IMG/VR virus record: IMGVR_UViG_3300035703_000022
Span: 1 to 64,000 of that record
Origin: a virus
Length of the DNA: 64,000 nucleotides
Strand: one strand, 5' to 3'
Of the stretch, positions 39,920 through 40,826 are shown piece after piece. The first letter of the stretch is position 1; each line of letters starts with the position of its first letter. Below the pieces are notes generated by a model, which made no database searches, was not told where the DNA came from, and saw nothing but the letters and a program-made list of their open reading frames with translations. Position numbers and translations under genes: made by a program.

Positions 39920-39958
39920 ATTATAGACAAAAAAAGAGGGGGAGTCAAGTCCCCCTCT
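39920..39958 (-). terminator. Intrinsic terminator overlapping a near-consensus sigma70 promoter
   Basis: AGAGGGGGA-cttgac-TCCCCCTCT-TTTTTT; TTGACT-17-TATAAT. Confidence 0.85.
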
Positions 39959-39962
39959 AATA

Positions 39963-40064
39963 TTAAGCAACTTGAGGTTGCTTTGCCATATTCAGTTGTG
40001 CATTATGAAGGAGTTGTTCCTTCTTTGCCTTTTTCTTAAGATAACGAACGAAGTAAGTGTTCAT
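39963..40064 (-). CDS. 33-aa basic peptide coupled to the DUF4278 gene
   Basis: MNTYFVRYLKKKAKKEQLLHNAQLNMAKQPQVA; ATGA overlap; AGGAGG upstream; not in the track. Confidence 0.65.
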   Translation of the reverse strand: MNTYFVRYLKKKAKKEQLLHNAQLNMAKQPQVA

Positions 40065-40198
40065 TTATGCCCCTCCTTTACAAACTTAATACCACGATAG
40101 GTTTCGTTGTATTGTTGGGGTTGTTGCATCATTTGCTGTTGATATGCGATACGCTTTTCAGTATCATATTCAACGCCACGATATACGACTTTAGACAT
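40061..40198 (-). CDS. DUF4278-family peptide (45 aa), Gln-rich
   Basis: MSKVVYRGVEYDTEKRIAYQQQMMQQPQQYNETYRGIKFVKEGHK with two YRG motifs; SD AAGGAG; not in the track. Confidence 0.85.
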   Translation of the reverse strand: MSKVVYRGVEYDTEKRIAYQQQMMQQPQQYNETYRGIKFVKEGHK

Positions 40199-40230
40199 TA
40201 GGGTTCTCCTTAGTTTTTTAAGTTAAAGAG

Positions 40231-40446
40231 CGTTCCTTCAGTCGGCTTTTGCGTCTTGGAAACAACCTTTCTTGGTTACCTGTTTAATCTCCCATACAAT
40301 ATCATTCTTCTGTTGAAGACTTAATTCTGGGTGAGTTATCACTCTACCAATAATAAACTGTGCCTGTAGACAAGTTAAGAAGAGTGCTTCCATAGATGAA
40401 CGATCCGTTCCGAGTCGGCTTACTTCCGTCCCATAGGGATGAACGT
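40231..40446 (-). ncRNA. Tandem glnA-type glutamine riboswitch
   Basis: Aptamer 1: CGTTCATCCCTATGGGACGGAAGTAAGCCGACTCGGAACG (40445-40406). Aptamer 2: CGTTCATC..GACGCAAAAGCCGACTGAAGGAACG (40402-40231). Lies upstream of DUF4278. Confidence 0.75.
40238..40393 (-). CDS. 51-aa ORF embedded in the second aptamer
   Basis: MEALFLTCLQAQFIIGRVITHPELSLQQKNDIVWEIKQVTKKGCFQDAKAD*; ATG and TGA abut or overlap the aptamer strands. Confidence 0.55.
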   Translation of the reverse strand: MEALFLTCLQAQFIIGRVITHPELSLQQKNDIVWEIKQVTKKGCFQDAKAD

Positions 40447-40452
40447 AAGGTC

Positions 40453-40504
40453 ATTATAGACCTATTGACTTATATATGCAAGTACTTTTGTAAAATAAGA
40501 TACA
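40453..40504 (-). promoter_or_regulatory. sigma70 promoter plus NtcA box
   Basis: TTGCAT-17-TATAAT (40481-40453); TGTA-N8-TACA at 40489-40504. Confidence 0.7.
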
Positions 40505-40508
40505 ATTT

Positions 40509-40826
40509 TTAATCTCTCTGTCTCCAATCATCTGGTTTATCACCAGAAAAGAAATCAACTATATCGTCTACACTATTAAATCCTGTTCTATGGTTCGATG
40601 GATCAGGATCTCCCAAGTCCAATGCATTCATAAAGTCATCTAAACTACCTTCTTGCATATCAGGATTAGCAGCACGGCGTCTTGCTTGCCTGAGAATAGT
40701 TGCGGCAGAACGATTAGACTTTGCTAATTTTTCTGCCCAAATCATATCACTTAGCTCTACAGATTCACCTTTCCCAATTCTTTCACAGATTGATTCGAGG
40801 CGTAAACGATATTGAGTAGAGAGCAT
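40509..40826 (-). CDS. Conserved cyanophage hypothetical protein
   Basis: MLSTQYRLRLE.IC..DMIWAEKL..LDDF.N.L.LGDPDP. Confidence 0.7.
   Translation of the reverse strand: MLSTQYRLRLESICERIGKGESVELSDMIWAEKLAKSNRSAATILRQARRRAANPDMQEGSLDDFMNALDLGDPDPSNHRTGFNSVDDIVDFFSGDKPDDWRQRD

Follow-up and report, generated by a model that had tools for sequence, protein, structure and literature searches.

The closest described relatives of the element analysed here are the glutamine-I riboswitches (RF01739). In the solved aptamer of this family the junction base G23 forms the so-called linchpin pair with C60, the base located 3' of helix P1 (PMC11477058; PMC6212724), and in the glutamine-ON leader of the Synechocystis gifB gene (IF17) the strand pairing with the Shine-Dalgarno sequence (anti-SD and SD, respectively) was proposed to start at the linchpin partner (PMC6212724). 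Aptamers of this type also occur in tandem: 157 glutamine doublets were catalogued in PMC9481103, where they are presented as independent, pseudo-cooperative switches with several expression platforms. In this work, we describe a locus with two such cores, identified within the virus record IMGVR_UViG_3300035703_000022 of IMG/VR; the whole analysed stretch of 64,000 nucleotides (nt) is referred to as the window, all coordinates concern this window, and all features of the locus are located on its minus strand. Comparative sequence analysis leads us to favour a reading in which the two cores form one composite, interlocked sensor with a gene in one of its arms, and not two aptamers in series. 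That a real gene is placed in an arm of an interlocked glutamine sensor seems to us very probable.

The first of the cores (core 1) reads CGTTCATC-CCTATGG-GACGGAAGTAAGCCGACTCGGAACG (40445-40406) and is composed, in RNA letters, of CGUUC (40445-40441), the hairpin UCCC-UAU-GGGA, CGGAAGUA, AGCCGACU, a single C, and GGAACG (to 40406). A linker of 3 nt, GAT (GAU in RNA), separates it from core 2, which opens with CGTTCATCT-ATG (40402-40391), i.e., CGUUC (40402-40398), A, UCU, and AUG (40393), and in which 139 nt are found between CGTTCATC and GACG. An open reading frame (ORF) of 51 codons starts at this AUG; its final 18 nt, GAC GCA AAA GCC GAC UGA, continue directly into AGGAACG (to 40231), and its stop codon, TGA (40240-40238), is localized within the conserved GCCGACTGAAGGAACG, whose end is position 40231. 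The initial annotation of this stretch had placed the ORF in the second core, in an insert of about 140 nt beginning with T-ATG, with its TGA in GCCGACTGAAGGAACG, which proved accurate to the base; it had also stated that the last codons (DAKAD and the stop) are the 3' strand of core 2, and this is borne out.

The ORF nested in the variable hairpin of core 2 is, as judged from its homologs, a real gene. Its product (51 amino acids (aa), beginning with MEALFLTCLQ and ending with CFQDAKAD) matches the phrog_504 profile (E 1.9e-5, 25.3 bits; residues 4-49 on profile positions 8-52 of 53), which is also matched by gp180 of phage P-HM1 (E 3.5e-12), and it should be stressed that part of the signal shared with phrog_504 is supplied by the RNA-dictated tail CFxDAKAD. 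A search of 5.8 billion proteins retrieved 86 protein clusters, most of them of exactly 51 aa, in which replacements are conservative and two cysteines (C8 and C44) are invariant, and relatives are encoded by 402 viral stretches of IMG/VR. Amongst the 80 loci kept of these 402, all fetched by protein similarity, the ORF lies directly 3' of CGTTCATCTATG and ends in the core in 78, the remaining two being cut at a contig end, which shows that this arrangement is not due to chance.

The initial annotation had proposed frame conservation and the ratio of nonsynonymous to synonymous substitution rates (dN/dS) as a check on coding, and both point to a protein under selection. Within 43 distinct 51-codon DNAs, the column entropy at codon positions 1, 2, and 3 equals 0.55, 0.32, and 1.04, respectively, and dN/dS is 0.15 (Nei-Gojobori, 726 of 903 pairs; pairs with dS below 0.05 or with saturation were left out). 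The frame is open in all 43 sequences, while each of the five other frames contains stops in 42-43 of them. Outside the RNA stem, i.e., in codons 9-18 and 30-36, the ratio of the proportions of nonsynonymous and synonymous differences (pN/pS) is 0.22. The AlphaFold2 model of the product (mean predicted local distance difference test score, pLDDT, of 85.3) predicts a helix-loop-helix (helices 2-19 and 26-39) with a disordered tail. Pfam contained no match for the nested protein, the ESM Atlas search returned unnamed clusters only, and the Foldseek comparison with PDB gave nothing at E <= 0.001, just generic helical hairpins. Contigs from RNA libraries (4 runs, 80% likeness) hold the sensor and the ORF of relatives in one piece (e.g., 40229-40431), and their joints that skip 139-141 nt correspond to ORF-less relatives; such contigs say nothing of transcription, starts, or ends.

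The letters of the ORF also carry an RNA constraint. The proportion of synonymous differences (pS) is 0.10 in codons 47-51 against 0.55-0.66 elsewhere, i.e., there are about five-fold fewer synonymous differences per site, from which it follows that the tail DAKAD is dictated by the RNA core. Moreover, the two ends of the ORF (~28 nt at the 5' side and ~30 nt at the 3' side) pair with each other (mean -17.7 kcal/mol vs -5.8 kcal/mol for control segment pairs), and this end-to-end pairing is below the mean of synonymous shuffles in 41 of the 43 sequences (mean z -1.56); in variants with ECK in place of the C-terminal GCF, the ends pair in another register. Since the ORF ends pair, the arm of core 2 closes around the gene, with the AUG at the arm base. 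A conserved internal fold of the insert was considered as well and dropped after RNAalifold analysis of the 43 RNAs.

Evidence for the interlock of the two cores was obtained from an alignment of 23 distinct ORF-less sensors, on which interlocked and self-contained structures were scored. A linchpin formed between the cores pairs in 23 of 23 (C-G in 16 and G-C in 7), and the terminal pair of a between-core helix P3 is G-C in 7, U-A in 5, and A-U in 3 of the 15 cells with letters. With the self-contained structure, both linchpins are unpaired in 7 of the 23 sensors, the class to which the window belongs, and the closing pair of a local P3 forms in 5/19 cases for core 1 and 5/15 for core 2. In the window, the linchpin expected of RF01739 is found across the cores only, as G40426 with C40230, and the local P3 hairpin of this family is absent. 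The linchpin was also examined in a sample independent of the ORF, for which viral contigs were collected by the junction motif alone; it comprised 119 loci among the matches listed, to which all counts from this sample refer, and of which 21 were chance matches and 98 were sensor-like, 83 of the latter being parsed. The across-core linchpin is present in 83/83 parsed loci (C:G in 64, G:C in 19), as it is in 83/83 of the protein-fetched set, with position 23 of core 2 being C in 83/83 and position 60 of core 1 being G in 82/83. In one class, made up of 32 loci, core 1 contains AGUCG and core 2 contains CGACU; the two sequences make a perfect between-core duplex and render local hairpins impossible in that class. 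In phage S-SRM01 (L001 653-829), A>C in core 1 is accompanied by U>G in core 2 at the opposite end of the duplex, whereby UGA becomes GGA and the nested ORF is extended by four codons, to a UAA inside the anti-SD strand.

For helix P1, the strands CGUUC and GAACG are present in both cores and all ten columns are invariant in the 23 relatives, and thus the assignment of an outer P1 derives from the covariation of P3 and the linchpin and from homology to the solved fold. In the unconstrained minimum free energy (MFE) fold of the RNA that begins at 40446, the strand 40445-40441 is bound to 40235-40231 and the SD is paired with the anti-SD, and in a fold begun 2 nt further upstream neither long-range P1 was formed. 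The initial annotation had paired 40402-40398 with 40235-40231; homology to the solved fold favours 40445-40441 as the partner of this GAACG. In the composite structure, the outer P1 (40445-40441 with 40235-40231) would enclose P2 of core 1 and the long-range P3. The pocket would be assembled from P2, the G22/G23 junction, and AGUA of core 1 joined with GAA and the P1 strand of core 2, and the between-core P3 (40420-40413 with 40247-40240) would complete a near-canonical glutamine pocket, while enclosing the inner hairpin (40410-40398) and the gene-bearing P2 arm. The whole fold would be nested, with the linchpins as its only pseudoknots.

The locus works like, and derives from, a glutamine-I riboswitch, as far as can be told from its sequence, and glutamine binding is predicted. 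Core 1 (40447-40402) matches RF01739 with 34.0 bits (E 1.7e-5; gathering score 35), while the split core 2 gives no Rfam match at either the gathering score or the E-value thresholds; at the gathering score, the Rfam scan of the window reported only three tRNAs, and the sensor surfaces only at E-value thresholds. In phage S-CREM1, the same core 2 flanks surround a 22-nt hairpin and score 33.5 bits (relatives: 33.5-35.9 bits), and the S-CREM1 record annotates its pair as a glnA riboswitch. Core 2 of the window can be therefore recognised as the second half of a phage glutamine doublet, with the hairpin swapped for 139 nt. The two cores of the window are complementary in their content: core 1 has the AGUA strand and lacks GAA, and core 2 has GAA, with CAAAA replacing GGAAGUA. 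Together, AGUA and GAA constitute what we take to be a loop-E motif.

DUF4278 (PF14105) is the family of IF17, an inactivating factor of glutamine synthetase. The 45-aa protein encoded 3' of the sensor matches PF14105 with 19.8 bits (E 0.001), which is under the curated cut-off of 25.3 bits, so the gene is called only DUF4278-like here; it also matches phrog_5049 (E 5.2e-12). A DUF4278-like gene follows the sensor in 14 of the 14 loci inspected, and the YRGxxYD motif is common to all of them.

Cyanophage contigs frequently show the nested-gene layout. Of the 83 parsed loci of the ORF-independent sample, 50 have a long arm 2 (139-192 nt), and in the other 33 this arm is short (<=40 nt). All 50 long arms have an ORF start within 14 nt of CGTTCA, and in 48 of them the ORF stops in frame at U(G/A)A, the P3/GAA boundary of core 2; the products of these 50 ORFs are very divergent and of 49-66 aa. 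Arm 1 is long in 19/83, and both arms are long in 10. Amongst sensors with a 5-nt P3, 25 of the 26 with an ORF and none of the 10 without one have a GAG/GAGC linker, which forms GGAG ~10 nt before the nested AUG and has the appearance of an SD under selection for the nested gene. A scan of genome contigs with the junction motif gave 0/120 sensor-like sequences among the matches listed, which is uninformative on cyanobacterial genomes.

A second nested ORF, placed in arm 1, occurs in P-HM1 (gp179, beside gp180) and in loci such as L029. In P-HM1 (L004 412-615), gp179 is a 67-aa protein matching phrog_6471, and its frame terminates at the UAA contained in AAGUAAG of the core. The IMG/VR loci with an arm-1 gene (L029-L032, L034, L035, L038, L039, L060-L062, L065, and L076; ~743-953) encode proteins of 66-68 aa with a signal-peptide-like N-terminus (MTKALLLLAWVPLLS...), and no similarity between the arm-1 ORFs of P-HM1 and L029 was detectable (E 2.8).

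As regards regulation, C40230 has two roles: it is the base that pairs with G40426 in the linchpin, and it also begins a 7-base-pair anti-SD/SD hairpin, the single one of the locus, which follows core 2. Because of this dual role, the same as proposed for the gifB leader, glutamine would be expected to free the SD of the DUF4278-like gene: the glutamine-bound sensor would pull C40230 from the anti-SD helix, and the gene would be ON. The SD itself is strong (AAGGAG) in 14/14 loci inspected. In the closed sensor, the nested AUG with its surroundings (40413-40378) would be wholly helical and the nested gene would be OFF at high glutamine; its translation would take place mainly with the sensor open (low glutamine) or before the 3' partner strand is transcribed. 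A translating ribosome would have to open the arm, the junction of core 2, and its P3 strand; on terminating, it would also unwind GAA and the outer P1 strand. It would thereby keep the 3' half of the sensor unfolded until it terminates inside the core. The initial annotation had a traversing ribosome unfolding core 2, and this prediction stands for its 3' strand, which the last codons form. As the ribosome must unwind sensor helices, translation and sensing would be mutually exclusive on any one molecule.

A different platform was observed in several loci (L013, L014, L016, L032, L049, and L004), where position 23 of core 1 is C and a G follows core 2; a small hairpin from that G (e.g., GGGAUCUAAUCC) precedes the SD there, replacing the CUCUUUA anti-SD. 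Attenuation through glutamine codons was also considered and rejected: the window peptide contains six Gln residues, whereas the nested ORFs of the wider set show no conservation of Gln codons.

We think it likely that translation of the nested gene and sensing are linked in regulation, and we lean slightly towards the explanation as a whole, i.e., a composite sensor, a nested gene, and reciprocal competition between the two. The direction of this link, with the nested gene OFF and the downstream gene ON at high glutamine, is a tentative proposal that falls somewhat short of probable. Its most elaborate version, a single pseudo-symmetric, domain-swapped sensor, possibly with two glutamines on the shared P3, acting as a reciprocal translational switch that is reset by ribosomes, must be regarded as doubtful.

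It is unlikely that the nested gene is simply a passenger, in which case the P2 arm would be a length-tolerant loop, translation would have no regulatory tie to glutamine sensing, and the sensor would act on mRNAs, or at times, free of ribosomes. Such a situation would agree with P2 being the variable part of the family, with short hairpins of many sequences at both arms, with the coexistence of ORF-less (33) and ORF-bearing (50) sensors in related phages, and with the occupation of arm 1 by unrelated ORF families. However, the ORF fills the arm exactly, starting at most 14 nt from CGTTCA in 50/50 and ending in frame at U(G/A)A of the core in 48/50 despite the divergence of the ORFs; its ends are selected to pair, the GGAG-forming linker tracks it (25/26 vs 0/10), and a translating ribosome is physically incompatible with helices that contain codons. 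As the main alternative to the reciprocal model we regard, at a lower probability still than a passenger gene, positive coupling through the terminating ribosome. Nested translation would here be the main route to expression of the DUF4278-like gene and glutamine would only modulate it: a ribosome terminating at 40240-40238 would cover the outer P1 strand and the first anti-SD bases (40230 onward), the SD located 26 nt downstream of the stop would be opened, and both genes would rise together. The distances (7 nt from the stop to the anti-SD and 39 nt to the next AUG), the S-SRM01 sensor, which lacks this TGA and whose ORF reaches the TAA inside the anti-SD strand, the strong SD in the 14 loci, and the overlap of the next gene pair as ATGA all speak for coupling. 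Against it, ORF-less sensors (S-CREM1 and the 33/83 mentioned above) keep the platform and the downstream gene, which means that the platform works without a nested ORF.

The relay put forward by the initial annotation, in which two self-contained aptamers act in series, aptamer 1 gating the ORF and the ribosome unfolding aptamer 2 as the sole controller of the DUF4278-like gene, appears very improbable. Each half does resemble the Rfam model (34.0 bits for core 1, 33.5 bits for the intact S-CREM1 core 2), and glutamine doublets are treated as independent 'pseudo-cooperative' switches in PMC9481103. Nevertheless, local P3 hairpins and self-contained linchpins fail in the class of the window while the between-core pairs covary, AGUA is present only in core 1 and GAA only in core 2, and the 3 nt between the cores leave no room for an expression platform; gating of the ORF by the first core found no separate support. 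What survives of this interpretation is the nested, selected coding frame, and what does not is the pair of independent serial aptamers. Hardly credible, finally, and already contradicted by the coding data, is a non-genic insert, i.e., a structured RNA expansion of P2 with an incidentally open frame. The strong pairing of the insert ends and the position of the conserved N- and C-terminal codons in the stem would suit it, but three-base periodicity and dN/dS of 0.15, a frame open in 43/43 with the other five closed in 42-43/43, pN/pS of 0.22 outside the stem, conservative amino-acid replacements, and the absence of conserved pairing inside the insert do not.

Several observations weigh against the composite sensor and the regulation proposed for it. 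P1 never varies, and the choice between outer/inner and self-contained helices rests on topology and the MFE fold, relative to which forcing the composite fold costs ~6 kcal/mol in the nearest-neighbour model. In the majority class, which has C at position 23 and G at position 60 of either core, the linchpin data fit both models, so only the G:C class of the window (7/23) discriminates between them, and the swap from G-C to C-G may stem from few evolutionary events. Core 1 is one bit under the Rfam gathering threshold for RF01739. For the ORF of the window itself, the pairing of the two ends does not differ significantly from that of synonymous shuffles (z -0.76), and RNAalifold, run on the 43 nested-ORF RNAs, finds no conserved pairing inside the insert beyond P1. 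As for a ribosome-binding site, the nested gene of the window has no more than a weak SD-like sequence, GGAU, located 10 nt 5' of its AUG. Both translation of the nested ORF and glutamine binding by the RNA are predictions, and the direction of regulation is entirely inferred, as a terminating ribosome could open the anti-SD and turn the downstream gene on.

The coordinates of the particular features are summarised in Table 1.

Table 1. Features of the glutamine sensor locus and of the putative transcription unit (positions in the window).
Feature	Position	Strand	Details
Promoter-like site	40453..40481	-	TTGCAT (40481-40476), 17-nt spacer, perfect TATAAT (40458-40453); found by eye
CGUUC of core 1, read as 5' strand of outer P1	40441..40445	-	Partner 40235-40231
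P2 hairpin of core 1 (UCCC-UAU-GGGA)	40429..40439	-	4/4 pairs covary in 23 ORF-less relatives
Junction CGG-A-AGUA of core 1	40421..40428	-	Equivalents in the solved aptamer: G22 for G40427, G23 for G40426
Linchpin base of core 1	G40426	-	Alignment to the Rfam model; PMC11477058
P3 strand of core 1 (AGCCGACU)	40413..40420	-	Partner 40247-40240 of core 2
Inner hairpin	40398..40410	-	GAACG (40410-40406), GAU loop, CGUUC (40402-40398); invariant columns
Position 60 of core 1	G40405	-	In the GAU loop of the inner hairpin
Nested gene, 51 codons and TGA, phrog_504	40238..40393	-	ORF list; profile and conservation evidence
5' side of the long P2 arm, core 2	40370..40396	-	Start codon at 40393-40391; codons 1-8
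3' side of the P2 arm, core 2	40254..40283	-	Codons 37-47
Junction CGC-AAA of core 2	40248..40253	-	Position 23 of this core: C40251
P3 strand of core 2 (AGCCGACU, 40247-40240), then GAA (40239-40237)	40237..40247	-	UGA stop 40240-40238
GAACG of core 2, read as 3' strand of outer P1	40231..40235	-	MFE fold
Expression platform	40206..40230	-	Anti-SD CUCUUUA (40230-40224), complement UAAGGAG (40212-40206)
DUF4278-like gene, 45 aa (MSKVVYRGVEYD...)	40061..40198	-	ORF list
33-aa ORF, ATG overlapping the preceding TGA (ATGA)	39963..40064	-	phrog_545, weak (E 0.024)
Intrinsic terminator-like hairpin, then T run	39935..39958	-	Terminator scan

The best explanation for this set of features is a phage transcription unit of ~510 nt, composed of a promoter, the composite glutamine sensor, the DUF4278-like gene, the 33-aa ORF, and a terminator. 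The nearest database relatives of the window are T4-like cyanophages of Synechococcus and Prochlorococcus, a thyX-like gene (39722-39090) is found on one side of the locus and a speD-like gene (41180-40854) on the other, and the virus record (138.5 kb, 67% complete) contains a single junction of this kind. The TTGCAT/TATAAT pair is presumably the promoter, with the transcript expected to start near A40446, one base 5' of the sensor; a consensus promoter scan did not list this site, the -35 hexamer of which fits in only 3/6 positions. An NtcA-type box, GTA-N8-TAC (GTATCTTATTTTAC, 40490-40503, minus strand), is located ~50 nt upstream of the expected transcript start, at a spacing to TATAAT that differs from the canonical -41.5, and an NtcA-type box (GTATAGCATTTTAC) is also found 5' of the sensor in phage DSL-LC02 (L002). 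The -10 hexamer is enclosed by an inverted repeat, AGGTC-TATAAT-GACCT (40447-40462, minus strand), and GGTCTATAATAGACC palindromes lie likewise 5' of sensors in many viral contigs; the repeat may serve as a regulator site or form a hairpin at the 5' end. Upstream of the unit lies a gene (40509-40826, minus strand; 105 aa) that belongs to phrog_507 (E 3.5e-50), to which no function is assigned, and it is the upstream neighbour in DSL-LC02 too. At the other end, the 33-aa ORF (…KKEQLLHNAQLNMAK…) is similar to the C-terminal half of a single protein of 48 aa (…EKENKLKEAQLAMAMK; L005 726-872) encoded downstream of the S-CREM1 sensor. One gene may thus have been split into the two small genes of the window or, alternatively, two may have been fused in S-CREM1.

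Compared with the glutamine-I family (RF01739; the gifB leader and the solved Synechococcus aptamer), the locus has in common the CGUUC and GAACG strands assigned to P1, a P2 hairpin of variable sequence, the ACG-G/C junction and its linchpin, the conserved AGUA and GAA strands, the DUF4278-like downstream gene, and an anti-SD beginning at the linchpin partner, as in gifB. It differs in that P3 is a duplex between two half-degenerate cores and not a local hairpin, in that one P2 arm holds a translated-looking gene of 51 codons, and in being missed by Rfam scans at the gathering score. The tandem doublets of PMC9481103 are alike in having two head-to-tail cores upstream of one gene, whereas here the cores are 3 nt apart and form one fold with one platform, and the independence that defines those doublets was not found; no nested ORF is mentioned for the doublets in the accessible part of that source. 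Likewise, no gene inside a glutamine aptamer or a shared P3 is described in the accessible parts of PMC2864571, PMC6212724, PMC9964418, PMC9004378, PMC12379486, PMC9481103, PMC12452182, and PMC11477058, nor was either found by full-text literature search, a negative result that leaves aside supplements as well as Ames and Breaker 2011 and Ren et al. 2015, two papers that may be relevant to the novelty of the layout.

If the reciprocal, domain-swapped switch outlined above were true, no natural riboswitch before it would have had a translated gene inside its aptamer. The locus challenges two views: that of aptamers as compact non-coding modules, since a selected protein gene is placed in an aptamer arm and shares its last codons and stop with the ligand-binding core, and that of tandem glutamine aptamers as independent switches, since P3 and the linchpin are common to both cores. 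It would also provide a testable case of direct competition between ribosomes and ligand-dependent RNA folding in a phage apparently reading the nitrogen status of its host. Since standard Rfam scans miss this layout, riboswitch censuses and phage gene annotation both misread such loci. The glutamine-sensor locus is of high interest for both riboswitch and phage biologists.

Two more distant types of systems deserve comparison. In the group I introns of T4-like phages, homing-endonuclease ORFs are looped out of peripheral helices; the locus resembles them in having a gene in a length-tolerant RNA loop, the ends of which are joined by a closing helix, and in the RNA structure near the start codon, while here the host RNA is a 5'-leader ligand sensor and not a ribozyme, the last codons are part of the conserved core, and the product is a 51-aa protein without an assigned function. 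In leader-peptide or upstream ORF (uORF) attenuators of the trp or erm type, the position of the ribosome on a short upstream ORF selects the downstream RNA structure, as is proposed here. Riboswitch expression platforms with uORFs are the subject of bioRxiv 10.1101/2022.06.01.494293 and 10.1101/2024.07.19.603033. The ORFs of both types are located in the expression platform and the peptide is usually irrelevant, whereas the ORF described here lies inside the sensor and its peptide, far from being unconstrained as in a leader peptide, bears the marks of purifying selection, both over its whole length (dN/dS of 0.15) and outside the stem (pN/pS of 0.22).

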